Assembly: GCA_003649205.1 (NCBI GenBank)
Contig: QMRC01000011.1
Span: forward strand, 1 to 59,968
Origin: Thermoprotei archaeon
GTDB lineage: Archaea > Thermoproteota > Thermoprotei > Thermoproteales > B15-G16
Direction of reading: 5' to 3'
Length of the DNA: 59,968 nucleotides
The notes beneath the pieces were generated by a model. The model saw only the letters and a program-made list of their open reading frames with translations, had not been told where the DNA came from and searched no databases. The position numbers and the translations under genes are program-made. Of the stretch, positions 14,898 through 59,968 are shown in pieces (the first letter of the stretch is position 1; each line of letters starts with the position of its first letter).

Positions 14898-14978
14898 AGC
14901 TAGGATGATCCAGTACCTCCACGTACATCACTATGACTTAGTCAAAAATCAAATAAGGTACCTACCACGATTACAGGT

Positions 14979-28482: not shown

Positions 28483-28486
28483 ATAG

Positions 28487-32937: not shown

Positions 32938-32941
32938 ATCA

Positions 32942-34687: not shown

Positions 34688-34690
34688 GGT

Positions 34691-35254: not shown

Positions 35255-35260
35255 GCCTTG

Positions 35261-36286
35261 CTACACCCCAAGGAGCTTCACTATGCCACGACCTATCGTC
35301 TCATGACCTCCTAGGATTAGGTAGCCGCCTTCCTTCAGCTTTAGTTTCTCTGTAATGTACTCTTTGATCTCCTTCTCTCCTGGTTCTTTACCGGTTAGCT
35401 TCCTAAACTCTTCTGCCACATCTGCCTTTCTCACCATTGAGTATAGGAAAACTGTTACAAATATCGTATACTCTGGAACATTTTCCTCAAGCCAAGGACC
35501 TTCGTCAACTACCTTAATAGCCGGCTTGAGACGGACACGTGCTTGACGGATAATACTTCGCTCAATAATTTCACGACCAATTGTATCGGGAACTACTGCA
35601 AGACCAACTTCTGTCAATGTGCATTGCTTTGGTAGGTTATTTAGAAATGTATCCACTTCCTTTAGAGACCTTACCTTGAGCTTGAATTCTTCATTTAACA
35701 CAATTTCATTACCTATAGCTGTCTTTTGAAGGGCATTCGAGGTAACTATTGCAGTGTCTTCACTTAACTCTTGAGTAGTCTTTTCCAGCAATGCTTTAGC
35801 TATGTCGTAGTATCTCTTTGCGTCCTCACTACCATAGATGTCAAAATATAGCTTTGTATATGTTTTGAAATATCTTAGTAGTTGTGGTGTTGTAATATAT
35901 ATCCACACACCTCGCAGAGACCTAGCTGGAATTGCTAGCAACTTTCCCTCAAGTATGGCGATTGCACCTGTGAACATTTCTGTAACTCCACGTACTTCAG
36001 GAGGCGGACCAAAGAGAGCTTTAATTATAGGATTTCTGTTTGCTTCATTAATTGCCTCGTCTAACTTCTTACCATCTTTAATCAGCTTAGGTACTAATTC
36101 TGACACAAACCTTGCTCTCAATGGCCCCTTTAGACTCGATGGTGGTATCACTGGGTATCCAAACGCATCCCTCTGTATGGGTAGGTCAACTACACCTATT
36201 GCCCTTCCTGTACCCACGTGCACCGGTGTAATTGCCTCTATAAATACAAGAGAGGCTTCACGATACGTACCAGCGACCAAGCTCAA
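35261..36286 (-). CDS. cmr4: type III-B Cmr4 backbone RNase
   Basis: TPVHVGTG..VVDLPIQRD (catalytic Asp), PSSLKG, LGGHETIGRG. Confidence 0.95.
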   Translation of the reverse strand: MSLVAGTYREASLVFIEAITPVHVGTGRAIGVVDLPIQRDAFGYPVIPPSSLKGPLRARFVSELVPKLIKDGKKLDEAINEANRNPIIKALFGPPPEVRGVTEMFTGAIAILEGKLLAIPARSLRGVWIYITTPQLLRYFKTYTKLYFDIYGSEDAKRYYDIAKALLEKTTQELSEDTAIVTSNALQKTAIGNEIVLNEEFKLKVRSLKEVDTFLNNLPKQCTLTEVGLAVVPDTIGREIIERSIIRQARVRLKPAIKVVDEGPWLEENVPEYTIFVTVFLYSMVRKADVAEEFRKLTGKEPGEKEIKEYITEKLKLKEGGYLILGGHETIGRGIVKLLGV

Positions 36287-39600: not shown

Positions 39601-42600
39601 CCTCTAATACTTGTTTCAAGTGATCACATAGTTGATAAGGTTAAGAGAGGTGATAAGGTCTTTCAATGTTTGTTTCTGCTCCCTGGGCGTACATTGAGTA
39701 CTTCGGCTTCGGTTACCACACTTTCAATGTTTGTTTCACCGAGCTGATGTGTCAGTGGATTAAGGAAAATCTGTGAGATTTTTCTCTTTCAATGTTTGTT
39801 TCGATGCTGCAGCTGTTCGTGGAGACGGAGATGTTCGGTACAGTGGCTTTCAATGTTTGTTTCGCACGTGTACTTCCACATCACTCAGGAGTACATACTC
39901 GACCCACACAGTCTTTCAATGTTTGTTTCTCTACGTGAACCCACCTTAATCTTCTCCTTTTTCTCACTCATTCGGGGCTTTCAATGTTTGTTTCTGTAAA
40001 GGACCTAATACACACTTTCAGCCAACACAGCAGGAGGCTTTCAATGTTTGTTTCGATAGTAGCAATGCTGAGAGAAGGCTACAGTCCAAGCACAATCTTT
40101 CAATGTTTGTTTCGGCTCGTACTAGAGTACCTCATGTATGAGGGAACAGGAACAACACTCTTTCAATGTTTGTTTCTAGGCCACCCATTTGATGACCTAG
40201 AGAAGCTAGTTAGAGAATTCCTGCTTTCAATGTTTGTTTCGGAACAAACAAAGTTCTATGATGGAATTTCCGAGGAAATCAAGCTTTCAATGTTTGTTTC
40301 GGTAGAAGGTGATGGCTTTGTCAATACGTGAATCTAAAGTCACTTTCAATGTTTGTTTCTACGTATGCCCACGTTGTTTAGCAGAGCTCCAGTACGCAGG
40401 TCTTTCAATGTTTGTTTCACTAGGAGAATTAGGTACTGGGTCTTCAGGGCCATTGGCTGGATACCTTTCAATGTTTGTTTCTTTGCTTTACGGAAAAGTA
40501 TACACTGCAATAAAAGGACATATGATAATCTTTCCAGCTTTCAATGTTTGTTTCCCTGTTACAAAGACACTCAGAGAACATTTGAAGTTACCTCTTTCAA
40601 TGTTTGTTTCACTACAATGGCTGTGAGCCGCAGAGGACGTACATTGAACTTTCAATGTTTGCTTTCAATGTTTGTTTCGTTGCACGCGTTAATAAACAAG
40701 TGCCTTCTTGAGTTGTGCTTTCAATGTTTGTTTCGAGAGGTCTCTCAATACTTGTTGGTCTTCACAGGGATTATCGCTTTCAATGTTTGTTTCGGATTCT
40801 AGGATTAGGTTATATAACATGGACTGTGTTATCTTTCAATGTTTGTTTCAAGCAAATCAATGAGTTGCTGAGTGAGCTTAGGGAGCTCTTTCAATGTTTG
40901 TTTCCAGAGGAGAAAAAAGAGAAGAAAAAGAAAGTAATTGACCTTCACTTTCAATGTTTGTTTCAGCTCATAAAGTTCTTGTGTGGTTGCTAACTAAGGT
41001 AACTCCCTTTCAATGTTTGTTTCACTTCATTGCCCTAGTGAGGTTGTTCATGGAATTGCAATGGCTCTTTCAATGTTTGTTTCAACATGAAGTTGCGATT
41101 TTGAGAGATGGAAAGGTTATAGATCCTTTCAATGTTTGTTTCCAAGCTAAAGAATTAGTCAAAGAAAAAGAGCTAACAGTGATCTTCACTTTCAATGTTT
41201 GTTTCATTTGGGCGACCAACTGATTTACATTGTTCCTGAGAGACCCTTTCAATGTTTGTTTCGAGAAACTCAGACTTAGTAGGCTCGTAGTGGCTCACAC
41301 TTTCACCCTTTCAATGTTTGTTTCAAAAGAAAGGGATGCAAATAATAATTCACACCGAAATTGATTGCGGCTTTCAATGTTTGTTTCACAGGAAGTTATA
41401 CATTGCCGAAAGAGGGCATATGTTGATTCTTTCAATGTTTGTTTCAGGAACTGGGTGCTATTCGAGTGATGTCTGCTAGGCTCAAACTACCTGTTCTTTC
41501 AATGTTTGTTTCTCAGTAAGTACGGTAGAGGTGTACAGTGTACACCATTAATCATCTTTCAATGTTTGTTTCACGCAGTTCTGAGGCTACTGAGAGACCT
41601 AATGAAGTACGTCTTTCAATGTTTGTTTCACTAGCGTTTTTAACTGACAAGATAGTAAAGCTAGAAGACAAAGTCTTTCAATGTTTGTTTCTAAACTACC
41701 TACGAAAACTTTTCTCGTGAAGAAAATAGCTTTCAATGTTTGTTTCCAGTAGTTGATAAGTTGCGTAGAGTAACAACAGAATTACTAACTTTCAATGTTT
41801 GTTTCACAGGCTTGTTGAGGAATATAGAGGTGAGGTGTACGAGTTCTTTCAATGTTTGTTTCGACTTATCTCTAACCTGTCTATCTCTGTGTCTGTTAGT
41901 CCTCTTTCCTTCTTTCAATGTTTGTTTCGGTGCTTTCATTGCTGGTGTGGGTAGGGAGTACCTATTCCTCTTTCAATGTTTGTTTCACCCAAGTGAGTTT
42001 ACTGATGCAGTGAGGAAGCTAGCTGTGGTCTTTCAATGTTTGTTTCGTACAGGATCCTAAAGCGTTACGAAAGTGACCAGGAGTTTACTTTCAATGTTTG
42101 TTTCTAGGGACTTGATAGCGATTACGACACTTGCGCTACTGTTAATCCTTTCAATGTTTGTTTCGATATACTGTTAGCGACACGATGTTTGCTATGTTCC
42201 TCAAAATGTGCTTTCAATGTTTGTTTCAAGGAAGCTACGCTACAAGGCATTAAGTCACAGGTAGATACTTTCAATGTTTGTTTCGAACAGCAGGTTAAGC
42301 TACTCGAAGAACTCAGGAGAAGAGACTTTCAATGTTTGTTTCAGAAGTACCCAGAGAGAGAGGAGGAAGAAAAAGAGTCCTCATGGTACTTTCAATGTTT
42401 GTTTCAAATATCCAACAACAAGAGACGAGGAAGAACAGGAAGGGCTCTTTCAATGTTTGTTTCAACCAATGAGGGTTACAGTGGTTTACGAGTACGGGTG
42501 CAGTAACCTTTCAATGTTTGTTTCCAGAAGTACCGAGCAGACATCATAGTACCTGTACTACCACTATCAACTTTCAATGTTTGTTTCAAGTCTCATAAGA

Positions 42601-43540
42601 GTACGAAACGAATTGTCCTCAAAATTCGTCTTTCAATGTTTGTTTCGAGAAAATTGTAGTTCTGCTCACTTCACTACTTCTTACCTTAACTTTCAATGTT
42701 TGTTTCACGGAAGCTCTAGCTGATGTCCCTGTTGCAGTGTATCAAGACGGTACTTTCAATGTTTGTTTCTTTGCTTTACGAGAGGTGAGTAGACGTGAGG
42801 TACAGGGAATTACTTTCTTCACTCATGCTTTCAATGTTTGTTTCAAGAGATAGAGAGGGAACTAAAGAACATCGAAGACATGACCTTACCAAGCTTTCAA
42901 TGTTTGTTTCAATTCATCATAGGTGTCGAAATCTACAAACGTAACTTGTACTTTCAATGTTTGTTTCCATGAGTTGCTTCACCTAGTGTTTGCAGAGAAA
43001 CAGAAACGTCTTTCAATGTTTGTTTCGCGTGAACTCCTAGCTAAGTGTCTAGAAGAATTGAAAGCTAACTTTCAATGTTTGTTTCACGAGCTTTTTTCAT
43101 ACATCTCTAACCTCATTTCCAAGTCTCGTTCTCCTTTCAATGTTTGTTTCTTGAACCAGCCAAGGAATTTCGAATAATAGAATATACGAATTTGGTACCT
43201 TTCAATGTTTGTTTCATTCAGTTCTACGTACTCAGCACAGAGCAAGTAATCAGAATCTTTCAATGTTTGTTTCGGGTAGACAGTAATGGTGGAACAGACA
43301 TTGATTACGCTATTAGGGTCTTTCAATGTTTGTTTCGTCGGTACGGTTCCTGTCGTGATTACTCACGTATATGTCCTCGATGTGGTTCTTTCAATGTTTG
43401 TTTCACTCGACAACGGTACGGAAATCAAAGAGCTGAACTATGAGGTAAAGGGTAACTTTCAATGTTTGTTTCTTTGCTTTAAGCAATACAAATAGCAACA
43501 ACATACAGAGACACTTAAATACACTTTCAATGTTTGTTTC
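39601..43540 (-). CRISPR. CRISPR array, 17-bp repeat CTTTCAATGTTTGTTTC (crRNA sense GAAACAAACATTGAAAG), about 64 exact repeats
   Basis: exact repeats counted by eye from 39660 to 43524-43540; unique spacers mostly 38-51 nt; degenerate terminal repeat CCTCTAATACTTGTTTC at 39601; ATTGAAAG 3' end on the minus strand. Confidence 0.95.
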
Positions 43541-44265: not shown

Positions 44266-44281
44266 GCTCTAGCACATTTCT

Positions 44282-45064: not shown

Positions 45065-45090
45065 GTACTCTCACCTTGTCTCATCCTTGA

Positions 45091-46111: not shown

Positions 46112-46158
46112 TTGCTTTCACCTATGTCTCTGCTCATTACTATCCTCTGCTTTCTCCT

Positions 46159-47214: not shown

Positions 47215-47285
47215 TCACTAGTATTGTGCTCTACGTGGGATAAAACAGTCAGCTATGGTTGAGTACGTTTATAGGTTGAGATCTC

Positions 47286-47636: not shown

Positions 47637-47694
47637 GTACTTCACCTTGTTTTGTGGGTAAAGTAAATTACTTGGTCTTTGATACTTTGTTTGA

Positions 47695-48045: not shown

Positions 48046-48816
48046 CTAGGTTACGAGTCTCTTAATCCACTTCCTCAATGTTAATTCACCTGTTTTTGTA
48101 TCTCTTACCAGTACTCCTCTCTGCTCCAGCATCTCTATGTACTTATCACTTAGTTGTTCCCACTTACCTAGTTCTGGTACTAACTGTATTGGTACTGTAG
48201 GTAGCTCGATTACCTCCTTCATGAGTTCGTGTATGTAGTAGACCTTGTCTATTCCTGCTAGACAGGCATAGAGGTAGAGCACTGCTGTTTCTGGTTTGAA
48301 TCCACCTGTTGCATTGAGTAGTACTCTGTAGCCTGCTCTCCTCAGTTGAGGGATGGCTGTGGTTAGTATGTCTAGTAGGTTGTGAATACCCTCCTCGAAG
48401 TCTATACCTAGTTTCTGAACTCTAGTAGCTTCGACATACGGTATGTTCCTTATCTGTCTTAGGTAGTGCTCCAGTATCTTTGCACAGAAGTAGCATGTTC
48501 CGCTATCTGTTGTGATTAGGAGTACGTACTCTACCCTACCTTTTGCTAGGTAGTTCCACATTGCATTTAGCTCTGCGCTGTACTTTCTGGGGTTTTGTGT
48601 GAGTACTTCATATGCTCTCTTGAATTCTGTTGTTCCTGGTGATGCCTTGTTACCTGCTTCTACGTCATCTGGTGAGTTGGGTAGTGATCGTGACCATCGT
48701 ACATATGGTTCACCTAGTTCCTGAGCTATGTTCCTTACAATGCTCGTACCTACTGTAACTACGTGTGCTTCAGCACCTACTCTACTAGCTCTAGGAGGTA
48801 TGTGGGGATATGCCAA
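48046..48816 (-). CDS. APE2256/SSO1393-family CARF protein (ring-nuclease-like), second copy
   Basis: VTVGTSI, SAELNA, TTDS, LNATGGFKPE, YYIHE..VIELP. Confidence 0.85.
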   Translation of the reverse strand: MAYPHIPPRASRVGAEAHVVTVGTSIVRNIAQELGEPYVRWSRSLPNSPDDVEAGNKASPGTTEFKRAYEVLTQNPRKYSAELNAMWNYLAKGRVEYVLLITTDSGTCYFCAKILEHYLRQIRNIPYVEATRVQKLGIDFEEGIHNLLDILTTAIPQLRRAGYRVLLNATGGFKPETAVLYLYACLAGIDKVYYIHELMKEVIELPTVPIQLVPELGKWEQLSDKYIEMLEQRGVLVRDTKTGELTLRKWIKRLVT

Positions 48817-48878
48817 GGTTCTTCACCCACTACTTAAGTTACTGTGTGTTTCTTGTCAGTGAACCCAATGCTGGTGCT

Positions 48879-49946
48879 TCATTGTCGCTTAGTTTCCTGA
48901 GATGTGAATTCTCTTCGAATGGTCTTGGATAACTTTATCCAGTTCAGGAGTTTGGTGTCTGGTGTAAGCAGTAGCATGGATGGTTCTTCATATGTTTCCT
49001 TTGGTTGAGGTAGTACGTACGTTGTTAGGTCTTTCCTCACTACTTCACCTACTTTGATCTTCGTGATTAGGTAGGTGTAGGTTAGTGCTGTTAGTAACCA
49101 CGATAATGCTCTGTATGTCGTAGTGTGTGTCTTACCCAGTACTTGATCTGGTTTGGGGTACCTTATGAGTGCTACGTGTATGCCGTACGTACTTGCTACC
49201 TGTGCTAGCTTGGTATCTGCCGTTATGAGGTATGGTTCAAGTACTAGTGCATTCTTCCTAATGTACTCTCCACAGCTCCGTACTATAACTACATCGCTAC
49301 TACACTCCTTATCCTCAATTGAAGGGATCTCTATGTGTGGTGTACAGCTTCTCTGTAATTGAATTTCGTAGAGTGCAAGCTGTGCTCTTCTACCTTCCAG
49401 TCCTGGTACTCCCTGAAGTATTGTCATTACCTTGGTAGGTAATCCAGATATTGTCTGTTGTATAGTGCTTAATTCCCTACCTACTCTAGATCTCGTGACT
49501 GCGTTTGCTATCTCTTCAAGTGCTTTACTGCAGATTCCTGTTAGTGTGTATCTCCAGGTATCTGTAGGTAGTTCCTGAAGGAGCTTGTGTACAGTACCTG
49601 TGTAGTACGCTGATGTATCGAAGTAGAGAATGGGTTTTCTGATGCTTTTTCCACTGTACTTCAGTACTTCATCTCTCAACGATTGTACTGCTGTATCGCT
49701 CACTATACCTGAGTACAGTAGACAGCACCTAGCTACATCTCTACTACGTTGACTTAACCAAGTTGGTTCTCCACGTAGATTCTCAATGTAGATCCTTGGA
49801 ACGTCAGTACTTAGGTCAATTGTCGCTAGGTCTATCCAGTAACCTCTATCTGGTATGGAGAGTATGAGTTCGCTACAATTCCTACGTGTGTAGTATGTTA
49901 GTACTGCTACTAGGTCACTAGTCGTTACGGTTGTTTCATTGAACAT
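48879..49946 (-). CDS. PIN-domain-like protein
   Basis: LYFDTSAY, ALEEI, SSDVVIV, LITADTKLAQVA. Confidence 0.7.
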   Translation of the reverse strand: MFNETTVTTSDLVAVLTYYTRRNCSELILSIPDRGYWIDLATIDLSTDVPRIYIENLRGEPTWLSQRSRDVARCCLLYSGIVSDTAVQSLRDEVLKYSGKSIRKPILYFDTSAYYTGTVHKLLQELPTDTWRYTLTGICSKALEEIANAVTRSRVGRELSTIQQTISGLPTKVMTILQGVPGLEGRRAQLALYEIQLQRSCTPHIEIPSIEDKECSSDVVIVRSCGEYIRKNALVLEPYLITADTKLAQVASTYGIHVALIRYPKPDQVLGKTHTTTYRALSWLLTALTYTYLITKIKVGEVVRKDLTTYVLPQPKETYEEPSMLLLTPDTKLLNWIKLSKTIRREFTSQETKRQ

Positions 49947-49948
49947 GG

Positions 49949-51805
49949 TTAGGATAGTAGCTCAATCTTCACTCTAAGTGGTATCTTTCTGTTTGGTGCT
50001 GCTAGTCCTGATATCAGTGCTTCACCAATGTCTAGGTCAGGTAGCATCTCTACGTCTTGCCTAATGACAGACTCACAGCTTCTCTGTATCTGTTCTTGAT
50101 CGTAGAAGTTCGTTACTCTGAGCGCTACTATTGTGCTGCATTGTGATAGTACAGTCATGTCTACTCTAGCTGGTCTCTGAGATATTATACAGAGTCCAAG
50201 TCCGTACTTCCTACCTTCAGTAGCTATCTTCCTCAAGATAGGTAGTGTCGTGCTCTCTCTAGCCTCTTCACCTGCTGGAGCATACCTATGAGCTTCCTCA
50301 ATGATGAGAAGCAGTAGGTCACCTTGTTCAGGTCTGTGTACCTCATCGAGATCTGGAAGTTCAGTACCTAAGCTCTTACTCAGCTCCTTGATGTAGTGTG
50401 TTGGCTTTGTTACACAGACTGTGAAGATCTTGTTTAGTAGGTGCGTGATAACTGGTTCAGGGTCTTGAAGTACTCTATGGAGGTCTATGCAGGTTACTGA
50501 TCTCGGCTCTAGTATCCTCAGTATGAGTGCTGTCTCTATGGTGTGTCGGTAGTAGGTTGATACGTAGGTGCTCTCTATGATTCTAAGGTCACGAGCAACA
50601 GAAGCTATTGACTGTGGGTGGTAACCTAGCTTCCTAAGTTCATTAAATACATCTCCCGACCCTAGTAGGAGCTGTGTTATCATCGATACATCATAGCAGT
50701 TCTCACCGAGGATCTGCTGCATACCAGACTCGAGATACTGCGTAGCTATGTCCTTAACTATGTCACTGAAGTAAGCTGATACACCCCTCCTAATAGCTAG
50801 TAATGTGCTAAGTGGTAGTAGTCTGGGTAGGTATAGGTTCATGAGGAGTACCCTACTACCTAGGATCTCCTTAACGAAATCTACCTCACTTGATAGTACA
50901 GCTGGGTTCTTAACATCAATCACCGCAATCTCTTCGAGAGGTACCTTAACTTGCTCGCTCAACTGCTCACTCAATGCCTTCAGCTCACTCTCTGAGGCAT
51001 ATGGTACTAGCACAGTTATCTTGAGATCACTACGACCTAGATCACTCCACAATTTAGATATTAGCGGTGTTGTACCACTCTCAACTAGTCCAAGACCTGT
51101 GTACTGACCCATGGGATCTAGTACCAGTACCTTACCCCTACTGTAGCTCTTGATGAAGCCATAGATCAGTCTCTTAGCTGTCTCCGTCTTACCAGCACCT
51201 GTCTGCGCTAGTATAGCTACGTGGTAGCACAATTTCTTAGGTACGAGGTAAACCTTGACATTTCTCTCATACGATAGGGTCCCCATGTAGATACCACACT
51301 TCATGTACTCATCTCCAAGTGACTCTGTGTGAATTACCTTCTCGAGAATCTCTGGACTCGGTCTAAGGACTAGAGATGTTGGTTGTGGTGGTATGTCTAC
51401 ACTGACTAGTTTCCACCTACAATCTTCTTCCTTCCTCAGTACACCTAGTAGCTGCAGCGTAGCTGTATAGGACTGTAGTTGCCTAGCTATCTGACTACCG
51501 GGTACCTGCTCAATTACCTTCCTAATTATCTCCGTTATGGCTTGAAGCTCTGTACGCTCCCTAGCTAACTGAACTAATTCAGATACTGAGGGTTGAACAG
51601 GAGATTGATATGGTCTTAAGTTAATTACCCTACAGAGGTAGTGCCTACTAACTGTCCTATCCTCAATGAAGAGGAGAGCACCTAGACCAACAACCTCACC
51701 AAACCCCATGTATAGCTGAGCGTAGACTGTTCTATGATCTCGTACTCTAGAGACAATACCGATACCAATACCTAACTCAGTACTCTGAGACATACCCAAA
51801 GACAT
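49949..51805 (-). CDS. herA: HerA-like ATPase/helicase
   Basis: N-terminal HAS-like barrel, HVAILAQTGAGKT, LDPMGQY, LIIEEAH, EGRKYG, SQRP. Confidence 0.9.
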   Translation of the reverse strand: MSLGMSQSTELGIGIGIVSRVRDHRTVYAQLYMGFGEVVGLGALLFIEDRTVSRHYLCRVINLRPYQSPVQPSVSELVQLARERTELQAITEIIRKVIEQVPGSQIARQLQSYTATLQLLGVLRKEEDCRWKLVSVDIPPQPTSLVLRPSPEILEKVIHTESLGDEYMKCGIYMGTLSYERNVKVYLVPKKLCYHVAILAQTGAGKTETAKRLIYGFIKSYSRGKVLVLDPMGQYTGLGLVESGTTPLISKLWSDLGRSDLKITVLVPYASESELKALSEQLSEQVKVPLEEIAVIDVKNPAVLSSEVDFVKEILGSRVLLMNLYLPRLLPLSTLLAIRRGVSAYFSDIVKDIATQYLESGMQQILGENCYDVSMITQLLLGSGDVFNELRKLGYHPQSIASVARDLRIIESTYVSTYYRHTIETALILRILEPRSVTCIDLHRVLQDPEPVITHLLNKIFTVCVTKPTHYIKELSKSLGTELPDLDEVHRPEQGDLLLLIIEEAHRYAPAGEEARESTTLPILRKIATEGRKYGLGLCIISQRPARVDMTVLSQCSTIVALRVTNFYDQEQIQRSCESVIRQDVEMLPDLDIGEALISGLAAPNRKIPLRVKIELLS

Positions 51806-53372
51806 ACCTCCTAGCTGTGAAATATCTGTGTACTAATGTAAGTGGTATTACCCTAAGTCTGAGGTACCTCTCGAGTACGTTAATGAACTCCCTCTCACTA
51901 GGTCTAATCCAGGAGTAGTAGTCAGCCATTAGTATGGGTGCAGGATACCCATGTACATTCACCTTGGATAGTGCAAGCACGTACCTAAGCGCTCTCTCTA
52001 GTTCGTCTTTCCTCAACTCTAGGTAGGCTGGGTACTCAACCCTTATGGGTGCTCTAATGGTTAGTAGTGACAGTGCTTTTCTAAGGGTACCTGGTTGGGC
52101 ATGTACTTCTCCTAGGATCTTGCTCTTGATGTAGTCTAGTGATTTAATCTCATCTAGGAATAGGTACGTGAACCTAATGTCGTATGGTCCTGCAAGTCCT
52201 CTATCCACGCTGTACACTATGTTACGTAGCTCTGTAGTGTAGTAACCGTAGTCTAGAGCTATCCTCGATAGTGAGTATGCTGTGTTTGGTAGCTTATCTA
52301 CATGAAACTCAACCAACTTACTACGCTTGAATCGAGGTGCTGATGACTCAGGTATTCCGTCTATGAGCAAGCCCTCCGTCGCCATCATGGTTAGTAGCTC
52401 CGCATCGGATATCCGTAGTTTAGTTCTGTGCTCTCTCACGTACTCCATAGCTACCCTAGTAGCGACGTAGTGCTCATCCACCGTAGCTCCTCGATAGGCC
52501 TCTATTAGCTGATTAAGCGTATCAAGCACGTAGACCGCGTGCTCAGTAATAGGTTCCTCATAGTACCTAACAACAGCATCCTCAAGCATGTTGCTAGCTC
52601 TCCTCACATCTCGTTGTAGCTCACGTACTAGTGACAGAACGGAGTACCTAATGAATAACCTACTCCTCCTAATATCTTCGAGAACCCCCATTGGGAATAC
52701 ACAGCTATCTCTACCTAATTCGAGGAGCTCATGTAGTATTGCTACGATTATCCTGGACGATACGTACCTTCTCCTACCTCCCTCCTCACTAGGCCTCACT
52801 GCACTGTAGTCATCCCTTACCTTTCTAAGGAACTCTACCACATCATCTTCATTCCAGCCAGCAACCATGAGTATCCTACGTAGAAGATCCTCAGGTATGT
52901 CGTAGGTACTCCTATCGTACTGAACTAACTGATGTACTAGTGGTCCATGTCTCAACACGAGAATCGGTCCAGTGAAGTATTTAGCAAGTCTCTCCTCTCT
53001 AGCTACCTTGAGCATTGTCGCTACTTCGAGTAAGTACCTGGCAGCTTCGTGAAATTCCTCCTGGGAGTAGAGTAGAATTGCTACAGGACCTATCCTGTCA
53101 CTCCATGGAATTCTGATCTCTTCACGAACTTCCCCACCAAGGACCTTCCTGCTGTAGATAGCTATCTTTGTTGCAGATACGTACTTCTCCTTTGAGAATA
53201 CGTACCCAGCATCAATAGCGTAGACGCCAGGAACCTCTTCACCGTGAAGCACCTTGAGTAAGGTATCTAGGTTAGTGAGGAGTTTGCTGAATCTCTCTAT
53301 AAGGTGTCGAGACCATGCTAGGACTGTGTACAGTACTGGGTCTAGTACTATGGGTTGTGGAAGAGAACTCAC
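51777..53372 (-). CDS. nurA: NurA-like nuclease (divergent)
   Basis: YAIDAG, LRHGPL, PIRVEYP, HGYPAPILMAD; overlaps the herA start. Confidence 0.75.
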   Translation of the reverse strand: MSSLPQPIVLDPVLYTVLAWSRHLIERFSKLLTNLDTLLKVLHGEEVPGVYAIDAGYVFSKEKYVSATKIAIYSRKVLGGEVREEIRIPWSDRIGPVAILLYSQEEFHEAARYLLEVATMLKVAREERLAKYFTGPILVLRHGPLVHQLVQYDRSTYDIPEDLLRRILMVAGWNEDDVVEFLRKVRDDYSAVRPSEEGGRRRYVSSRIIVAILHELLELGRDSCVFPMGVLEDIRRSRLFIRYSVLSLVRELQRDVRRASNMLEDAVVRYYEEPITEHAVYVLDTLNQLIEAYRGATVDEHYVATRVAMEYVREHRTKLRISDAELLTMMATEGLLIDGIPESSAPRFKRSKLVEFHVDKLPNTAYSLSRIALDYGYYTTELRNIVYSVDRGLAGPYDIRFTYLFLDEIKSLDYIKSKILGEVHAQPGTLRKALSLLTIRAPIRVEYPAYLELRKDELERALRYVLALSKVNVHGYPAPILMADYYSWIRPSEREFINVLERYLRLRVIPLTLVHRYFTARRYVFGYVSEY

Positions 53373-53460
53373 GTATGCAACCTCCAGCTCGATCTAGATA
53401 CCGAGGAACTACCTAATGTAATCTACTCCCTTCCCCAGACAATCTACCTGTGATATAGTT

Positions 53461-54519
53461 TTACTCACACCTAACTACGTAGGATATGTGTGGTTCACTA
53501 ACGGGTAGAGTGAGTACGTACTTACCGCATCCAGCAGCTGCTAACTGACCAACACCCATGTACTGACCAAGTATCAGTAACTGAAGAGCTAGCATACTAA
53601 TGCTTTTTCTCCAGAAGGATTGCTGCACCTCGTACACGAAGTAACCCCTAATGAATGTTCCGAGAACCCTCCTCTCATCACTAGCAATCATGTACTTACG
53701 TAGAACAACCTTACTCCTATGTGCGTATACCAACTTCGCATTAGCCCTAACAGCATCCCTAAGCTCTCTAGCTTCAAGCACTGAGAGTACTTGACCAACC
53801 CTGTGAAATGCAGCTAATTGACTATACCTCCTAGCTAAATTCATCACAATGGCGTGTAGTGGCGGCTCAGTTACTACCTGACGATTGTGCACTACCATGG
53901 TTGGTGTCGTGAAGTTCAGGACTATGTACCTAGGCCTTAACTCCCTAAGAGCAATTGCCTTCTTCTCAACTCTCCTCAGTAAATCATCACTTAGCACGGT
54001 AGTGGGTATTGGTTCCCTGATGATACCAGCATCGTCCCTATAGACTACCTGTACTGAACCCGTAAAGGGGTCAATTCTGAGAATTCTTGAGATAAAGAAC
54101 CTCCTCCTCTCACCATACCTAGCATCCATACCTAGACCCAACATACCACACTTCAGTAGTGATAGTATGATCACTGGCTCACATCTAAGCTCAATCAAGT
54201 ACCTAGGTGCTAGCAAGTAGAAGCCAAATACTATCTCACGACCACGGATGATAGCTGGTTCAACTGAGTAAGGTCTCGATACACCAGCTCTTGCACCTCT
54301 CTTAGCGAAATCAACATCATAGTCACAGCTCCTACTCTCGAAGAAGTGGTAGTAGATGCACCTCCCTCTCATGCAGCAACCACTGCAGTTTCGAGAACCA
54401 GTAACACAGCACACACTACGTAGAGCAGAACCAATCATCCCTCTAGTAGCAAATCCAGTGAATCCCCTCGGTCTAGTGTAGTCTCTAGCTAGAACACCAT
54501 GTACGAGGTACAGAAGCAT
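53461..54519 (-). CDS. cas6: Cas6 endoribonuclease (Cys-rich type)
   Basis: GFATRGMIG, CC..C..C...C.Y cluster, FTTPT, G-loop GVGQLAAAGCGKY. Confidence 0.85.
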   Translation of the reverse strand: MLLYLVHGVLARDYTRPRGFTGFATRGMIGSALRSVCCVTGSRNCSGCCMRGRCIYYHFFESRSCDYDVDFAKRGARAGVSRPYSVEPAIIRGREIVFGFYLLAPRYLIELRCEPVIILSLLKCGMLGLGMDARYGERRRFFISRILRIDPFTGSVQVVYRDDAGIIREPIPTTVLSDDLLRRVEKKAIALRELRPRYIVLNFTTPTMVVHNRQVVTEPPLHAIVMNLARRYSQLAAFHRVGQVLSVLEARELRDAVRANAKLVYAHRSKVVLRKYMIASDERRVLGTFIRGYFVYEVQQSFWRKSISMLALQLLILGQYMGVGQLAAAGCGKYVLTLPVSEPHISYVVRCE

Positions 54520-54563
54520 CTAACATAGTTCACGGTGAGAAAACCTATGTAAGTTAGTGCTAC

Positions 54564-55247
54564 GTGGAGTTCGGTGATGGTGATGGTGTGAGGCTTGGTT
54601 TACTCCCCGTTACAGTGTACGCTAGGGATCTCGTTGATTACCTCATATGCCCTCACCGCATATACTTAAGGAGGTACCTGTACCTACGTGGAGTAGTTAC
54701 GGAGTACATGAGTGTTGGTGGTGAGGTACATAAGCTCCTGTACATGTACCTTCAGGGACGTGACGTTGGGAGGGAGCTGGTTAGGTACGGGATTGATGTG
54801 GGTAAGTTACGTGAGGTCTATAGTGAGCTTAGGAAGTTAGGTGATGTGGAGTGTGAGGTCGAGGTAGGGTATGGGCCGCTTGCTGGTTCCATAGATTTGC
54901 TCGCTGGTGGGGTCCCTGTAGAGGTTAAGTACAGTACGAGACCTAGGTTCGGTGATGTGGTGCAGCTTGCATTCTACGTACTCTTACTGGAGCTCTCGAA
55001 GGGAAGGAACATATCTCGAGGTTACTTACTGTACCTCCCCTCCTGTAATCTCATTGAGATCAAGGTTGAGAGTTGGTTAAAGAGACTTGTTCTCGAGTTT
55101 TGTAAGGAGGTTCAACTCATTAAGTTAGGTCTCGTAGATTCTAGTCCTCGGTCGAGAAGAGCTTGCAAGGGGTGTGAGCTAGGTATGTACTGTAAATTCC
55201 GTGGTGAGGGGGGTGCCGAAGAGAGGTCTCTGGCTTCTCGTAGGTAG
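54564..55247 (+). CDS. cas4: Cas4 exonuclease
   Basis: YLICP, GGEVH, GSIDL, VEVK, QLAFY, CKGC.....C. Confidence 0.9.
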   Translation: MEFGDGDGVRLGLLPVTVYARDLVDYLICPHRIYLRRYLYLRGVVTEYMSVGGEVHKLLYMYLQGRDVGRELVRYGIDVGKLREVYSELRKLGDVECEVEVGYGPLAGSIDLLAGGVPVEVKYSTRPRFGDVVQLAFYVLLLELSKGRNISRGYLLYLPSCNLIEIKVESWLKRLVLEFCKEVQLIKLGLVDSSPRSRRACKGCELGMYCKFRGEGGAEERSLASRR

Positions 55248-56133
55248 GTACAGGGTAGGTGCTGAGAGTGAGCACCTCTACGTTCAGGAGCTTGATACCG
55301 GTAAGCTAGTGTATAGGAATGTTGCTCCTAGATTGTTGAGTAGTGTCTTGAGTACTGACCAAAGTCTCTTCACATCATCTGCTATCTGTCTACTAACGAG
55401 ATTTGAAGTACCATTGGTAGTTCTCTCTCGTGACCTTACTCAAGTTCTCTACTACGTTTACTGTGATGTATCTCCAGGGCTCTACAGCGAGATACTACTC
55501 AATCAGTACCAAGCTCAGGTAACCGACCTCATGCTTACGCTTCAGAAAAATCTACTAACTACAGCACTCAATTCCATAGCTAAAGCACTCGCCATCTACG
55601 GTACACGCCTAACTAGGCTTCTCCCAGTAATTCGAGCGTATAGAGCGCAGGTGGAGTGTAGTGAATTAAGTGAGGTACCTGAGCTAGATCAGGAATTCCT
55701 CAGTACCTTCCTTGAGTACGTGGCTAGAGAGCTAGATCTAGAACCTAACTACGTGAGTGATCTACATCAGAAACTACGTACCATTGCCTGTGGTGAAGTA
55801 CTTGCTGAAGTAGTTAAGGTAGGTCTTCAACCAGACATTGGATTAAGAACTGAACCGCTGGCCCTACTTGACGTACTTAAACCACTTACCTATATACCGA
55901 CACTTAAGACAGTACTTGATGTGTATGTAGTGAGTGGTGAGGTACCTAACCTACGTAATGTAGTCAAGAAGCTCTATGAAAACATATACTGTACACGTTA
56001 CAGGTGTAGTGATCAGGTAAGTAACTACGTGTGGTTCTTGAAGCAGTACCTAAGGAAATTACGTGAGTGGTTTAAAGAACTAACATCAGAGGTACCTACT
56101 CTAGAGCTGTATCCAGTGCTAGAGAAACCATAG
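55201..56133 (+). CDS. cas1: divergent Cas1 homolog, probably catalytically impaired
   Basis: N-terminal beta domain (FTSSAICLLTRFEVPLVV), NQY, GLQPDIGLRT matching GLDPxxGFLH without His, LALLDVLKP; follows cas4. Confidence 0.7.
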   Translation: MVRGVPKRGLWLLVGRYRVGAESEHLYVQELDTGKLVYRNVAPRLLSSVLSTDQSLFTSSAICLLTRFEVPLVVLSRDLTQVLYYVYCDVSPGLYSEILLNQYQAQVTDLMLTLQKNLLTTALNSIAKALAIYGTRLTRLLPVIRAYRAQVECSELSEVPELDQEFLSTFLEYVARELDLEPNYVSDLHQKLRTIACGEVLAEVVKVGLQPDIGLRTEPLALLDVLKPLTYIPTLKTVLDVYVVSGEVPNLRNVVKKLYENIYCTRYRCSDQVSNYVWFLKQYLRKLREWFKELTSEVPTLELYPVLEKP

Positions 56134-57297
56134 TTTCCTCGATTCAATAGCTACATCACCTAGACCTAACTTCGCAAATGTAGTTACCCTATGCGGGTAC
56201 AGGACAGTATTTGGTAGCTTAGTCCTGAGGATACAGGTACCCCAGTGAAGCTGAGCTAACCAATAGACATCTCTGGAGAGTGCTACAACATCAACATCCT
56301 CCCAAGACCAAGGCTCAACAACCTCCACAACAACAGGTCTCGGAGTAGCACCAAGGTGAGTAACCTCAGCATCGGGAATACCTAGAGTAGCAACAACAAC
56401 CCTACTACTACCCAGCCTAATCCAGGTACCTCTCCAAGGTTGCTGAGTTCTACCACCCATGAGGTTCAGCAACCTAATGGGTACAGACTTCATGACAGAA
56501 ACCATGACATACCTATCAATACCGAGATCACGAAGAACCTTCCTCAAACTATGAACCTCAGTAAAGTGGTATGGACCATCCCTATGAATGACAACTAAAC
56601 CACCACGGTACCTATCCTGGAGTACTTCAGCAACTAGATCGCCAACTTCAGGAGCAATCCTCTCAAGCGATGACCTCCTACAGAACCACTCAGTACAACC
56701 ACTAGACCTATCGTAGACGACAGTAGACACAACACCACCACCCACATCAAAACCGATGTAGAGATCACCGTAGAGACCACTGCGAACAGCCCAAGGAATA
56801 CCACCACACTTAGCAAAGACACCAACAGCAACATTAGCCAATACAACACCTCTAGACCTCAGGTACTTAACCGTGCTGTGAGTAACCATTTGACTGGGAA
56901 TACCATGACTAGCAATAACCTGCTTGAGGGGTATGTATGGATCGTCAGAGAACTGAACAGTGAATTCATCAGGGACGGTACACAGCACGAGATCAACATC
57001 GTGGATAGACCTAGCTAACTCAATAGCCTCACCATATGAGCTAAACTCAAGAACATCGAGAACTGTAACCTCACAACGAAACCACTTATCCAAACCACCG
57101 AAGACACCAACACCCTCAATTAAGTTCCTGAGAAACTCCCTAAACTCAGACCTCAAATCCCTATAAACCATACACAACATTGTTAAGCTAGGTAAGGACC
57201 TAAATGGACCATAACCAAGTTTGAATGCTTGCAGCGGATCTAGAGCGGTACCACTAGAGAACTCGAGTACAGGTCTAGAGAATATACCCCACCTCAT
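56119..57297 (-). CDS. ago: short prokaryotic Argonaute (MID + PIWI), about 392 aa
   Basis: MID PYIPLK..PSQMV..AKCGGIPW; PIWI YIGFDVG, IHRDG, K, P.RG, TPRP, LHW, KLPNTVLYPH; C-terminal LWFL; start at ATG 57297. Confidence 0.9.
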   Translation of the reverse strand: MRWGIFSRPVLEFSSGTALDPLQAFKLGYGPFRSLPSLTMLCMVYRDLRSEFREFLRNLIEGVGVFGGLDKWFRCEVTVLDVLEFSSYGEAIELARSIHDVDLVLCTVPDEFTVQFSDDPYIPLKQVIASHGIPSQMVTHSTVKYLRSRGVVLANVAVGVFAKCGGIPWAVRSGLYGDLYIGFDVGGGVVSTVVYDRSSGCTEWFCRRSSLERIAPEVGDLVAEVLQDRYRGGLVVIHRDGPYHFTEVHSLRKVLRDLGIDRYVMVSVMKSVPIRLLNLMGGRTQQPWRGTWIRLGSSRVVVATLGIPDAEVTHLGATPRPVVVEVVEPWSWEDVDVVALSRDVYWLAQLHWGTCILRTKLPNTVLYPHRVTTFAKLGLGDVAIESRKLWFL

Positions 57298-57352
57298 CAA
57301 GTAAGTAACTACGTGAGGTATCGATATCAGTAACCACACAGGTACACACTCT

Positions 57353-58009
57353 GTGAGTAGACTTAGATACGAAGTACTTAGGTACCTTCTGAGTAGGGAC
57401 AGAGCTACGTTAAGTGACCTACTCGGAGTATTTGGTCCACCGATAGTGGATGTTCTTGAGAAGCTGAAGAGGGAAGGGTACGTAGTAATTGAAGGTAATA
57501 CCGTTAAGTTGAGGGAATTAGCTAGGGAGGTTCTCACAGCACAGATACTTAAAGGACCAAAGCTAGTTCTCATTCCAAGAAACACCGAGAGCGCCACAGG
57601 AGGACCTACACTAGGTAGCTTCGCTGTGAAATTACCATCGAGAAACTACCGTGGAGTACCAAGGATGGAGATTACGGTACTACATCTAAGCTACGTAACT
57701 ACTGAGCAGTTGCTGGAGCTAGCTATCGACATCAGAAAGGTGTACAGTACCTTCCCGAACTGCGTGAGAGAACTTCAGCACCTAACTACACTCGTGAGGT
57801 ACGTGAAAGCACATAGAAATGAACTTATTAGGTCAATAGCACGTGAAATCGAGGCATTTATAGCATCAGTACGGTCATACCTCAGTAGGTGGAACTCACT
57901 AAAACCAGAGACCAGGGAGGAAGCTATCAAGTACGTGAGGAGCTACGGTGAGAAGCTGAGTAAGTTGATTACAGAGCTCTCGATAGTTGGTTCTAAGAGC
58001 GGTAATTAA
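57353..58009 (+). CDS. wHTH-containing protein divergent from ago
   Basis: ATLSDLL...VLEKLKREGYVVIEGNTVKL wHTH, then unknown helical domain. Confidence 0.65.
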   Translation: MSRLRYEVLRYLLSRDRATLSDLLGVFGPPIVDVLEKLKREGYVVIEGNTVKLRELAREVLTAQILKGPKLVLIPRNTESATGGPTLGSFAVKLPSRNYRGVPRMEITVLHLSYVTTEQLLELAIDIRKVYSTFPNCVRELQHLTTLVRYVKAHRNELIRSIAREIEAFIASVRSYLSRWNSLKPETREEAIKYVRSYGEKLSKLITELSIVGSKSGN

Positions 58010-59043
58010 CTAGAGGTTAACCAGTTCTTCAAGCTACGGCTCAACTTAATCCACCTACTCAAATAATCACTAGATCCAGTCTTCACAATGATACTCAATG
58101 GAGGGTCACTACAGCAATCTAAGCTCCTAGATATCGGTCCAGGAACCATCACAAACTCAAGATCTCTCGAACGAACCTTAATAGCTGATAAGAGGTACGT
58201 CAGTACAGTGAGTACAGTACCTACAGACTTGAAGCCTATATCGACCTCAGATGGTATCTGCTTTGGAGTAACGAGCTGAATAGGAAGACCGAGTAGATCA
58301 CTAGCAGAAGCAACGTCTTCCCTCGATGTTATTAGGATCGGTGTCACTCCTATACCGAACTGTGCTCTAATAGCTCTAGACAGTCTAAAGTAGAGACTAA
58401 ATACACCAATACCAACACCAATACCCAACGTGACCTCAGTAATGGGTAGTACCTTAGATGCATTGAGTAGATCGTGAAGTCCCAGAATAGTACGAGCTAA
58501 CTCGACATCTATTAAGTACTCACTAACCCTAAGACCAAGAGACTTAATGAAGTTCACCTGCAACTCATCAGGTAGAGGATTGTGTTCGTGAAGCAGCCTC
58601 ACTAGGTTCTCCTTAACATGATCAGGAATAGCAAAGTACGTAGTCTGTATCCTAGCTCTAAAGCTATGAGCTACAGAGAGCCAGTACCTAGCAAGAGAGT
58701 GACAGCAACCATACCACAGAGCTGTCTCATCAAACACTACAATAGGTAACCTCGAACCAGGTAGTGCGTATAGAGACTCGAGAAACTTAGCAAAGGAGTA
58801 CTTCAAGTCAGCAAAAGCAATATCCTCACCACTAAAGTGAAGACTCCACCACACAGCAACATCAAGTGGTAGTGAGCACCAAGACCAAGTACCTCCTCGA
58901 CTTCTCACTAACCTAAGTCTCTGTCCACTAAGTGAAATACGTAGTATAGACTCATCACCACATGAAATCTCAAACTCATCACTAACACTAAGCAAGTACG
59001 TAACTACAGGTAGTAAGTCACTAGACCTAATTCGTATTATCAT
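58006..59043 (-). CDS. degenerate PIN-like protein, paralog of 48879-49946
   Basis: VVFDETAL, ILITSREDVA; C-terminus LSRWIKLSRSLK vs LLNWIKLSKTIR. Confidence 0.6.
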   Translation of the reverse strand: MIIRIRSSDLLPVVTYLLSVSDEFEISCGDESILRISLSGQRLRLVRSRGGTWSWCSLPLDVAVWWSLHFSGEDIAFADLKYSFAKFLESLYALPGSRLPIVVFDETALWYGCCHSLARYWLSVAHSFRARIQTTYFAIPDHVKENLVRLLHEHNPLPDELQVNFIKSLGLRVSEYLIDVELARTILGLHDLLNASKVLPITEVTLGIGVGIGVFSLYFRLSRAIRAQFGIGVTPILITSREDVASASDLLGLPIQLVTPKQIPSEVDIGFKSVGTVLTVLTYLLSAIKVRSRDLEFVMVPGPISRSLDCCSDPPLSIIVKTGSSDYLSRWIKLSRSLKNWLTSS

Positions 59044-59531
59044 ACCTTCCTCTCGAGAATAACTATGTTTGAGTAGTACTTAGGAATATCAGTGAAAGGT
59101 AGGTTCTCAAACTCACGACTTCTAAGCGATAGATATGTCACGTACTTAGCATCGATATCGGTAGCTAACTTGTAGAGAGCTATGGACATGGGCTTAGTAC
59201 CAGCAGTAACATCAACAACACGAACTAGATCTCCATACCTCTCTACAACCCTCTTACGGAGCTTACTCCAGATATCGTAGATATCAAATGGATCGACCTC
59301 AACATAATCAACTTCAGGAACTTCCCTACCAAAGTACGTAGCAACCTCACGGAGACAACGCCCAATAGAGTCAATGAACCTAATAGTGTTGGAACTAGCT
59401 CCAAGCAAGACATACTTGATACGTAACCTACGTAACTCATCATGCATGAGGTAGTGAGCATACACATTAACAACAACAATAGGTGTAGCACCAACACAAG
59501 TAATTAACACAGCATTTGAATCCGAACTCAT
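59040..59531 (-). CDS. stand-alone CARF protein
   Basis: LITCVGATP, VDVTAGTKPMS, VTYL. Confidence 0.8.
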   Translation of the reverse strand: MSSDSNAVLITCVGATPIVVVNVYAHYLMHDELRRLRIKYVLLGASSNTIRFIDSIGRCLREVATYFGREVPEVDYVEVDPFDIYDIWSKLRKRVVERYGDLVRVVDVTAGTKPMSIALYKLATDIDAKYVTYLSLRSREFENLPFTDIPKYYSNIVILERKV

Positions 59532-59818
59532 AGGACGAACTCCCTCTCCAAAGACTCCCTTTCACCGTAATCCTCATGACAAATAACCATAGATCTACTA
59601 GAGCAAGAACTACACAGAGGGATAACCAGTACGTGAACCCTGTACATGCTAGACAAGACCTTCAACCTAAGTACTAATTCACTAAGTCTACCTGGAGGTA
59701 TATCAAGCTCAAAGACACTGTACTGAACCTCACAACCACCAAAATCACGAAGAAGTTCCCTCAACCTAACTCTACACTCCTCAGAATCCGTATCGTAGCA
59801 GACAATAACCCTAACCAT
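59528..59818 (-). CDS. cas2: Cas2
   Basis: VIVCYDT, LRDFG..VQYSVFE, IPLCSSC. Confidence 0.9.
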   Translation of the reverse strand: MVRVIVCYDTDSEECRVRLRELLRDFGGCEVQYSVFELDIPPGRLSELVLRLKVLSSMYRVHVLVIPLCSSCSSRSMVICHEDYGERESLEREFVL

Positions 59819-59968
59819 ACAGGAGATATCTAGAGACCGAACCTTGATATATCTTTAAGTAAATCTCAGTAGCGATGGTTAGGTACTACAGGATAAGGAA
59901 GGTAGGTAAAACACTAACTATCGAGGTAGACCTAGCTACATTGAGAAAGTACTTACCGAGAGAACGAA

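Follow-up and report, generated by a model that had tools for sequence, protein, structure and literature searches.

Argonautes in CRISPR loci

Prokaryotic Argonautes (pAgos) encoded between cas1 and cas2 have been published for Methanopyrus kandleri and for the MID-OH group of MpAgo (PMC3695527, PMC2743648, PMC6299218, PMC5995195). For MID-OH pAgos the scheme 'Cas1-Cas2-Cas6-pAgo-Cmr' has been drawn (PMC6299218), and a handover between Ago and Cas1/2 has been proposed, untested experimentally (PMC5995195); the question of cooperation between pAgos and CRISPR adaptation has been raised since the M. kandleri locus (PMC2743648, PMC5995195). Here a related locus is described in the window, that is, the whole 59,968-bp contig (C11) of a Thermoprotei archaeon, one of 31 contigs of a metagenome-assembled genome (MAG; G000) that is 93.8% complete. 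Its anatomy, meaning the identity of its genes, a split Ago whose DEDH tetrad is intact and the inactive Cas1 paralog, can be stated with very high confidence. With moderate confidence, the region is read as the central part of a type III-B CRISPR-Cas super-locus whose spacer-acquisition module incorporates a rare Ago that is split and slicer-competent. The genes that carry this reading are as follows.

56119..57294, minus strand: MID-PIWI subunit of the split pAgo, 391 aa (Piwi E 4.5e-10; DEDH tetrad; YKQK pocket)
59875..59968, plus strand: first 94 nt of the gene for the Ago N-L1-PAZ-L2 subunit (385 aa; hereafter N-half), continuing on contig C4 at L006:18773-19930, minus strand
55201..56133, plus strand: Cas1b ('Cas1*'), 310 aa, a Cas1 paralog without the catalytic Glu and His (Cas1b profile E 1.6e-6)
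L006:17811-18776: active-type Cas1 (Pfam E 1e-51), overlapping the N-half gene by 4 bp

As in the loci of the MpAgo-like (MID-OH; Marinitoga, Thermotoga) and M. kandleri pAgos, a pAgo lies in a CRISPR locus beside cas1 and cas2, and the MID-OH group and the window also share cas6 and type III-B genes; the link to adaptation is unproven in both cases. Unlike these pAgos, the window Ago is split, its pocket is of the 5'-phosphate type (YKQK) and not of the MID-OH type, and its N-half is operonic with Cas1, while the locus adds a dead Cas1 paralog, two Cas2, Cas4 and HerA-NurA. Thus the cas1/cas2/cas6/cmr neighbourhood of the MpAgo-like pAgos is found here and their pocket is not.

AfAgo of Archaeoglobus fulgidus is reportedly a truncated, catalytically inactive pAgo of the long-B type. 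In the form called fAfAgo, with MID-PIWI and a separate N-L1-L2 protein, it is likewise an archaeal Argonaute of two polypeptides from separate genes (PMC10954474). The window clade differs in that it keeps DEDH and that its partner is N-L1-PAZ-L2 with an extra domain of ~100 aa; no location in a CRISPR adaptation module is described for AfAgo. Short pAgos (SPARTA, SPARSA, SPARDA, SiAgo-Aga1-Aga2) also combine a chain of MID-PIWI only with a separate partner related to the Ago N-terminal region, but they are described as always carrying active-site substitutions (PMC6299218), and their partners bear TIR, SIR2 or DNase domains, whereas the window MID-PIWI retains DEDH and its partner is plain N-L1-PAZ-L2 over residues 100-385. 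The combination that defines a short pAgo, an inactivated PIWI with an APAZ partner bearing an effector domain, is therefore not what the window encodes, and no TIR, SIR2 or nuclease family was matched by the N-half in the library scans.

Two further published associations touch this locus. Shah et al. list HerA and NurA as an accessory pair, 'type III coevolved' (their clusters 57/58), found next to type III cassettes of Crenarchaea (PMC6546367), and the HerA and NurA-like genes of the window likewise sit beside a type III cassette. Unlike that pair, HerA-NurA is here a neighbour of Ago, in 7-9 of 12 lineages, with one HerA clade that tracks it; the paper does not contain the word Argonaute (PMC6546367). 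The Cas4-family nuclease ACE1 works with a long-A pAgo against invading DNA (PMC12094033), and the window too co-encodes a long-A-type pAgo, predicted to be active, with a Cas4-family nuclease. The ACE1 systems are, however, bacterial, single-chain and outside CRISPR loci (PMC12094033), while the Cas4 of the window is of the canonical adaptation type (TIGR00372) and stands among cas1 and cas2.

Literature searches, with subscription journals and supplements outside their scope, returned no description of this Ago clade, of a split DEDH pAgo coupled to Cas1, of an Ago-specific dead Cas1 paralog or of an Ago-HerA-NurA operon. The locus is rated as a variant of the known CRISPR-embedded pAgos. 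It offers a sharper natural case than MpAgo, with an Ago half translationally coupled to Cas1, a presumed dead Cas1 paralog found only with Ago, and a resection machine attached.

Gene layout and the contig join

The first-pass annotation had read the interval 48046-59818 as a minus-strand cas6-nurA-herA-PIN-CARF string, a divergent cas4-cas1*, a convergent ago and cas2-CARF-PIN*, mostly translationally coupled. This string is present, the NurA and PIN assignments resting on placement in the Atlas; all twelve open reading frames (ORFs) were confirmed at the coordinates given. The coupling also holds: the same-strand junctions measure -29, +2, -4, -4 and -47 bp (negative values are overlaps), with gaps of 62 and 88, and the convergent gene ends overlap as well (-4 bp for wHTH/PIN345, -15 bp for Cas1*/Ago). 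The ago gene is there (Piwi match as listed above), but the end assigned to it, 57597, was over-extended, homologs starting at the Met at 57294.

The string is incomplete, since the contig stops within it. The final 123 bp of C11 recur, without a mismatch and in reverse-complement orientation, at the end of C4 (window 59846-59968, L006 19837-19959), and this exact overlap makes C11 and C4 neighbours and lets the CRISPR super-locus span both. The join is supported by the divergent Cas2 and N-half layout that it produces, which recurs in the related loci L014, L015 and G400. Across the join, C4 carries in order the 385-aa Ago N-half gene, Cas1, a convergent second Cas2, a 271-aa gene whose protein has no assigned family, a 73-repeat array and a second Cas6. 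A further contig of the same genus, L009, is near-identical to the window contig.

A split Argonaute with an intact tetrad

By profile, the MID-PIWI subunit of the clade is nearest, among structures in the PDB, to the active long-A pAgos CbAgo (E 2e-40) and CpAgo (E 9e-38). In the profile alignment to CbAgo (6qzk), D183 falls on D541, D239 on D611 and the His of 'LYPHR' on D727, and the Glu of 'LERI/VEV' is one column off CbAgo E577; D183 and D239 are invariant in all eight MID-PIWI sequences. The aligned D183, Glu, D239 and His give a DEDH tetrad. Y120, K124, Q135 and K162 are likewise invariant in the clade alignment, and we take them to be the MID pocket for a 5'-phosphate (YKQK).

The N-half lies 2.6 kb from MID-PIWI in G000, across the contig join and in a separate transcription unit. 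It matches the N-terminal part of the PADLOC long-pAgo models (E 2e-7), its sequence profile finding no match in the PDB. Its AlphaFold2 (AF2) model has a mean predicted local distance difference test (pLDDT) score of 84 from an 8-row alignment, and in a Foldseek search with this model the top 50 matches listed were all Argonautes, led by MpAgo (2e-12), with CbAgo at 7e-12. VIA-align places residues 100-385 of the model on residues ~1-305 to ~1-340 of KmAgo, TtAgo, CbAgo and CpAgo with Z 15-17.5, the best being Z 17.5 for residues 100-381 against KmAgo 1-303. From the domain limits of the known Agos, we take this range to be N-L1-PAZ-L2. Residues 1-99 form an extra domain of ~100 aa (beta-beta-alpha-alpha-beta-beta-alpha, pLDDT 58-84) outside the part alignable to Argonautes.

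N-L1-PAZ-L2-MID-PIWI is thus not encoded as a single polypeptide but by two separate genes, which are adjacent and overlapping in L012/L021, L015 and G400. Judged by its sequence, the 'short' Ago of the window is predicted to be the MID-PIWI half of a split pAgo of the active (slicer-competent) type, closest to long-A. Such proteins are rare. MID-PIWI had nine matches at E <= 1e-5 among 5.8 billion protein clusters, one being its own cluster and one just 23% identical, and the Ago clade occurs in two of the 62 genomes of its order, both in the genus of the window.

Two side observations concern the split form elsewhere. In the genome copy of the L013 lineage (14785-16034), two ORFs of 194 and 154 aa stand in place of a whole N-half gene, which is either an assembly error or recent decay; the gene, by contrast, is intact (~416 aa) in the metagenome copies L016 and L027. 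A distant group of MID-PIWI proteins of ~420-440 aa (24% identical) was met at L028 994-3143 and L033 7847-10322, with a weakly N-half-like gene directly upstream, and hidden Markov models (HMMs) built from the window Ago clade found no cas genes at these two loci. Split Agos may be more widespread in metagenomes.

A presumably inactive Cas1 paralog linked to the Ago clade

Cas1* gave no Pfam match and nothing meaningful in the PDB sequence search; to PADLOC Cas1 it is faintly similar at the N-terminus (E 0.003). In related loci a 259-289-aa Cas1b gene stands upstream of a cas2 and matches positions 2-142 only of Pfam Cas_Cas1 (E 6e-9 to 6e-6). A profile made from three of these relatives matches the 310-aa protein of the window (E 1.6e-6) better than it matches real Cas1s, and the MAFFT alignment of Cas1* to Cas1 extends from end to end. 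In a joint alignment, the Cas1s linked to N-half retain the catalytic Glu, the 'YLH' His and the 'LDxAE' acids. In Cas1b the position of this Glu is occupied by D, V, A or R, and every row that covers the 'YLH' region, five of the six, has a deletion at the His (the L019 sequence is truncated). Cas1* is thus assigned by alignment to a presumably dead Cas1 paralog family, Cas1b. Its AF2 model (pLDDT 41, from a 4-row alignment) was too poor for use.

The first-pass annotation had tied an inactive Cas1 to this Ago clade, and the tie is borne out in 401 evenly sampled Thermoproteota genomes, in which the Ago clade was scored at E < 1e-90. The clade is present in six, and four of these, from four families, have a full-length Cas1b, compared with none of the 395 genomes that lack the clade (Fisher p 1.4e-8, the related genomes being not fully independent). 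One Cas1b match, in G255 (E 6e-17), was rejected: it scores better as an ordinary Cas1 and sits in a Cas4-Cas1-Cas2 operon.

Linkage across archaeal lineages

Loci of the clade were collected in three scans, of GTDB representative genomes (7 loci), of metagenomes (80 loci kept of 254 relatives; 9 clade members) and of the phylum sample. Dereplication by Ago identity left 12 lineages, 27-60% identical to each other except for one pair at 75%, from Thermoproteales, Thermoprotei, Thermoproteota, Nezhaarchaeota and Baldrarchaeota MAGs. The genes found near Ago were as follows.

N-half: 7/12 lineages
Cas1: 6/12 lineages
Cas1b: 8/12 lineages
Cas2: 9/12 lineages
Cas4: 7/12 lineages
HerA: 9/12 lineages
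NurA-like: 7/12 lineages
At least one adaptation gene: 11/12 lineages

Lineages that miss a part are mostly represented by contigs of 1.9-7 kb, and the three poorer ones by contigs of 1.9-4.3 kb. Operonic runs recur: N-half then Cas1 in four lineages, Cas1b then Cas2 in five, N-half then Ago in three, and Ago then NurA-like then HerA in two. Ago stands among cas1, cas2, cas6 and cmr genes in G000 and also in L017, L013, L014 and G400, the L017 locus continuing into a Cmr module whose genes are arranged as in the window. The clade was always found within or beside cas genes, CARF genes or arrays. In the same metagenome scan, 70 loci of other pAgos (21-30% identity to the query) had no such neighbours at E <= 1e-4, with HMMs built from the clade, which may fail to detect distant Cas proteins.

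The linkage is real for a core of genes. This core comprises N-half (often operonic with Cas1), MID-PIWI, an active Cas1, the dead Cas1b, two Cas2, Cas4 and the HerA-NurA pair, and the association of Ago with adaptation genes and HerA-NurA is very probably conserved. The first-pass annotation had held that its proposal would fall if the components proved independently shuffled in relatives with no conserved linkage; this does not hold for the core set, which is linked in 12 lineages, though in shuffled order. The parts specific to G000 lack relatives in other Ago loci. Similarly, the expected co-occurrence of this Ago clade with NurA and HerA was found at the frequencies listed above, but the HerA of the window itself falls outside the main Ago-linked clade.

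HerA, NurA-like and PIN-like proteins

The resection genes of the window and the associated PIN-like genes are the following.

49949..51805, minus strand: HerA-type hexameric ATPase/helicase (DUF87, Pfam E 2.8e-14, with the HerA C-terminus; PADLOC HerA E 5e-47)
51777..53372, minus strand: 531-aa divergent NurA-like nuclease (Atlas, 30/30 feature matches in NurA clusters at 0.91; structural template modelling (TM) score 0.46/0.64 over 291 aa)
48879..49946, minus strand: 355-aa PIN-like protein (Atlas, archaeal ~340-aa 'putative PIN' clusters, feature score 0.97, TM 0.76/0.81)
58006..59043, minus strand: 345-aa paralog of the 355-aa PIN-like protein (BLASTP 8e-6)

The HerA translation contains Walker A 'GAGKT' and Walker B 'IIEEAH'. 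It matches the NCBIfam HerA models at E 5e-39, under their full-length cut-offs, and the PADLOC model 'HerA, type III coevolved' at E 6e-18. Elsewhere G000 has at least four more HerA paralogs, as well as three NurA genes recognised by Pfam (C7 44653-47899, C1 333685-335367, C12 29413-31044, C2 186504-187997), and the HerA of the NurA-HerA pair on C7 is nearer to the Ago-linked HerA clade than the window HerA is.

The 531-aa NurA-like protein contains AIDAG, HGPL and GYPxxxxMAD, which are presumably the NurA motifs. No match to it was found in Pfam, NCBIfam, PADLOC or the sequences of the PDB, and a genome-wide search with PF09376 was also silent there. By hhalign the NurA-like family of the related loci matches it weakly (E 0.03), only over the C-terminal GFP/GYP...AD stretch. 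The 355-aa PIN-like protein has no match in the same four collections either, and PIN_4 is annotated on only 14-24% of the members of the Atlas clusters in which it was placed. In an alignment by eye, 'ITAD' of this protein corresponds to 'ITSR' in the 345-aa paralog, a substitution that suggests the possible loss of an acidic residue. The PIN-like pair occurs in one of the 401 phylum genomes, G000 alone. The first-pass annotation had counted both the PIN paralogs and this NurA among the linked components; neither was found outside the genus.

A possible route from Argonaute to the CRISPR array

Recurrence of the linkage in distant archaeal lineages suggests that Argonaute and CRISPR adaptation work together, and a functional coupling of Ago, resection and adaptation is, in our judgement, evenly poised between true and false. 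The first-pass annotation had already suggested that resection products could feed Ago and/or spacer capture. In the mechanism that we propose, HerA-NurA, with Cas4, would resect invading or broken DNA from its free ends, and the 5'-phosphorylated single strands so produced would load the two-subunit Ago, which would then slice complementary invader DNA. A heteromeric Cas1-Cas1b-Cas2 integrase, with Cas1b in the non-catalytic position of the Cas1 dimer, would capture fragments derived from Ago and from resection as prespacers and insert them into the flanking arrays. CRISPR RNAs (crRNAs) processed by Cas6 would arm Cmr, and the cyclic oligoadenylate (cOA) signal would act on the CARF, CARF-PIN and ring-nuclease proteins of the locus. 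Predictions that follow are a two-chain active slicer, a heteromeric Cas1-Cas1b-Cas2 integrase, and a choice of spacers that depends on Ago and HerA-NurA.

A stronger form is Argonaute-primed CRISPR adaptation, in which the two-chain slicer, fed by a dedicated HerA-NurA, would mark and cut invader DNA and pass the pieces directly to an asymmetric integrase of Cas1, Cas1b and two different Cas2; it is speculative and, on balance, unlikely. A possible route for this hand-over is the additional N-terminal domain (~100 aa) of N-half, the subunit with a gene that overlaps cas1. Modelling of N-half in complex with Cas1 scored 0.00 in both runs and gave no verdict, speaking neither for nor against binding. 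If true, Argonaute-primed adaptation would be a way for type III systems, which are PAM-less (PAM, protospacer-adjacent motif), to choose foreign DNA, a functional analogue of priming, and in the genus of the window the same machinery would serve arrays with 17-nt repeats.

The chief competing explanation is co-location without cooperation. Independent defence modules (the split Ago, the HerA-NurA-PIN-CARF operon, the adaptation genes, the CARF-PIN pair) would have gathered in and round type III loci, as in defence islands, and would be co-inherited only as neighbours. It is a real possibility, though less likely than cooperation. Several observations fit it and weigh against the cooperative reading. 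Gene order varies in almost every lineage, and G000 encodes the halves of Ago in different transcription units, 2.6 kb from each other. HerA/NurA has already been published as a type III accessory pair independent of any Ago (PMC6546367). In the HerA tree, the Ago-linked HerAs of five lineages (L010, L013, L014, L017, L020) form a tight clade (100/99), but the HerA of the window lies outside it, and those of L021 and G400 fall outside as well, among other paralogs, so that 'HerA' is not one co-inherited gene and non-orthologous HerAs adjoin Ago. L010/G374 and L012/L021/G196, with ample sequence, have Ago and HerA-NurA but neither Cas1 nor Cas1b near Ago, and no Cas1b was found anywhere in these genomes. 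The 531-aa NurA-like protein occurs in two of the 62 genomes of the order, both in the genus of the window; neither for it nor for the PIN-like proteins did the remaining 60 order genomes, or the 400 phylum genomes sampled besides G000, yield a detectable relative, and these proteins, together with the putative winged helix-turn-helix (wHTH) protein, lack relatives in other Ago loci. The control with 70 other pAgo loci used HMMs derived from the Ago clade, which would overlook distant Cas proteins near those pAgos. Finally, all the parts are individually CRISPR-associated, so their co-occurrence could be transitive.

Mere co-location fits less well with the restriction of Cas1b to genomes that carry the Ago clade (four of six, against none of 395). 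N-half overlaps or abuts Cas1 in four lineages and Ago abuts NurA-HerA in two, and the association holds at Ago identities down to 27-40% and in several archaeal classes.

Alternatively, Ago could be a second CRISPR effector, loaded with Cas6-processed crRNA or other CRISPR-derived guides, a possibility discussed for MpAgo-like pAgos, and without a role in adaptation. Ago has Cas6 as its direct neighbour in L011/L017 and L018, and the two are also close in G000 and L021; MpAgo is the top Foldseek match of the N-half model; pAgos of the MpAgo type also occur in the same kind of III-B locus (PMC6299218). The distinct MID-OH pocket of the MpAgo-like proteins (PMC6299218) argues the other way. No chain of MpAgo length (~639 aa) was among the 58 PDB sequences matched by the MID-PIWI profile (E <= 0.001), and the operonic couplings of Ago are to Cas1 and NurA-HerA, with none to Cmr genes. 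The Y-K-Q-K pocket has the residues canonical for a 5'-phosphate, whereas Cas6 products carry 5'-OH. A role as second effector is thus very improbable. Least credible is a non-immune module, in which the split Ago, HerA-NurA and Cas4 would act in DNA repair or replication-end processing (chromosome decatenation, break processing) as a mere neighbour of CRISPR: HerA-NurA are enzymes of double-strand-break resection, some long-A pAgos help finish replication, and G000 holds several other HerA and NurA pairs, but a clade of such rarity (nine proteins of 5.8 billion; 2/62 order genomes) is unlike housekeeping and was always near cas genes, CARF genes or arrays.

CRISPR arrays with 17-nt repeats

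The super-locus contains two arrays, one on each side of the join.

39660..43540, minus strand: CRISPR array 1, 64 copies of an exactly 17-nt repeat, spacers 37-62 nt
C4 116612-121111 (L006): CRISPR array 2, 73 copies of an exactly 17-nt repeat, spacers 37-62 nt

CRISPR repeats are usually ~21-50 nt long, and 17 nt falls below this range; we know of no shorter CRISPR repeat. In both arrays the information content is 2 bits at 17 positions and ~0 on either side. The reverse complement of the repeat ends in ATTGAAAG, an 8-nt tag shared with the ordinary 25-nt repeat on contig C1 of G000, and from this 3'-terminal tag on the minus strand array 1 is presumed to be transcribed from that strand. The spacers are unique, and six of them, four from array 1, have counterparts with 88-100% identity over 41-52 nt elsewhere in the bin (on contig C17 three times, and on C20, C26 and C8), which indicates that the arrays hold real acquired spacers; no PAM was readable from the six protospacers.

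The 17-nt repeat was not found in a second genome of the genus (G001, 71% complete, 230 contigs), so the arrays have been seen in one assembly only. Related Ago loci have repeats of ~30-35 nt, which makes the 17-nt repeat specific to the genus of the window; repeats of <20 bp had been put forward as a linked component and do not belong to the conserved set. Arrays with 17-nt repeats challenge ideas on how Cas6 and the integrase measure the repeat. The two Cas6 paralogs are long, with 352 aa (window) and 379 aa (C4).

Other genes of the locus

The remaining genes of the 48046-59818 string are listed here.

48046..48816, minus strand: stand-alone CARF7-family protein (Pfam PF09651 Cas_APE2256 E 9e-38; PADLOC CARF7 E 7e-67)
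53461..54519, minus strand: Cas6, 352 aa (Pfam CRISPR_Cas6 E 2.5e-10; PADLOC Cas6 E 7e-29)
54564..55247, plus strand: Cas4 (TIGR00372 E 8e-19, 68 bits against a cut-off of 65)
57353..58009, plus strand: 218-aa protein, possibly a winged-helix regulator (best match TetR_C_24 E 0.0087)
59040..59531, minus strand: 163-aa stand-alone CARF protein, CARF163 (Pfam CARF_Card1 E 4.5e-8; PADLOC CARF_m1 E 4e-11, CARF_PIN E 9e-6)
59528..59818, minus strand: Cas2, the copy divergent from the Ago N-half gene (Pfam Cas2 E 6e-11; position and tree)

The CARF7-family protein is a candidate ring nuclease or cOA sensor; it scores 58.7 bits against the NCBIfam ring-nuclease model, under the cut-off of 600. The Cas4 translation holds the four-Cys cluster and the ExK and QxxxY motifs. 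For the ORF read earlier as a wHTH, the frame at 57353-58009 exists, but no family in Pfam, NCBIfam or PADLOC matched above threshold, and among the Ago loci it is present only in the same-genus contig L009. The CARF163 gene overlaps that of the 345-aa PIN-like paralog by 4 bp, and the two products may form a split CARF-PIN effector. In the Cas2 tree the two positional classes separate weakly: a clade with support of 88/90 unites the N-half-adjacent copies from four lineages, and both G000 copies are on long branches.

Upstream of the string, the window carries a Cmr (III-B) module, two further CARF genes and array 1.

27331..36286, minus strand: type III-B (Cmr) effector module with Cmr3, Cmr2/Cas10, a RAMP, a 581-aa protein, Cmr5 and a RAMP (Pfam Cas_Cmr3, Cmr2_N, Cas10 palm2, RAMPs, Cas_Cmr5)
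37469-38197, plus strand: CARF protein of the Cas_NE0113 family
38419-39462, minus strand: CARF protein of the Cas_APE2256 family

Between array 1 and the CARF7 gene (43774-48045) lie a fragment of an AAA_21/AbiEii-type ATPase (45091-45783), a transglycosylase of the TGT family (46159-47214; Pfam E 8e-28) and a small ORF (47695-48045) with a weak integrase SAM-like match. The genes of this interval may be the remains of an inserted element.

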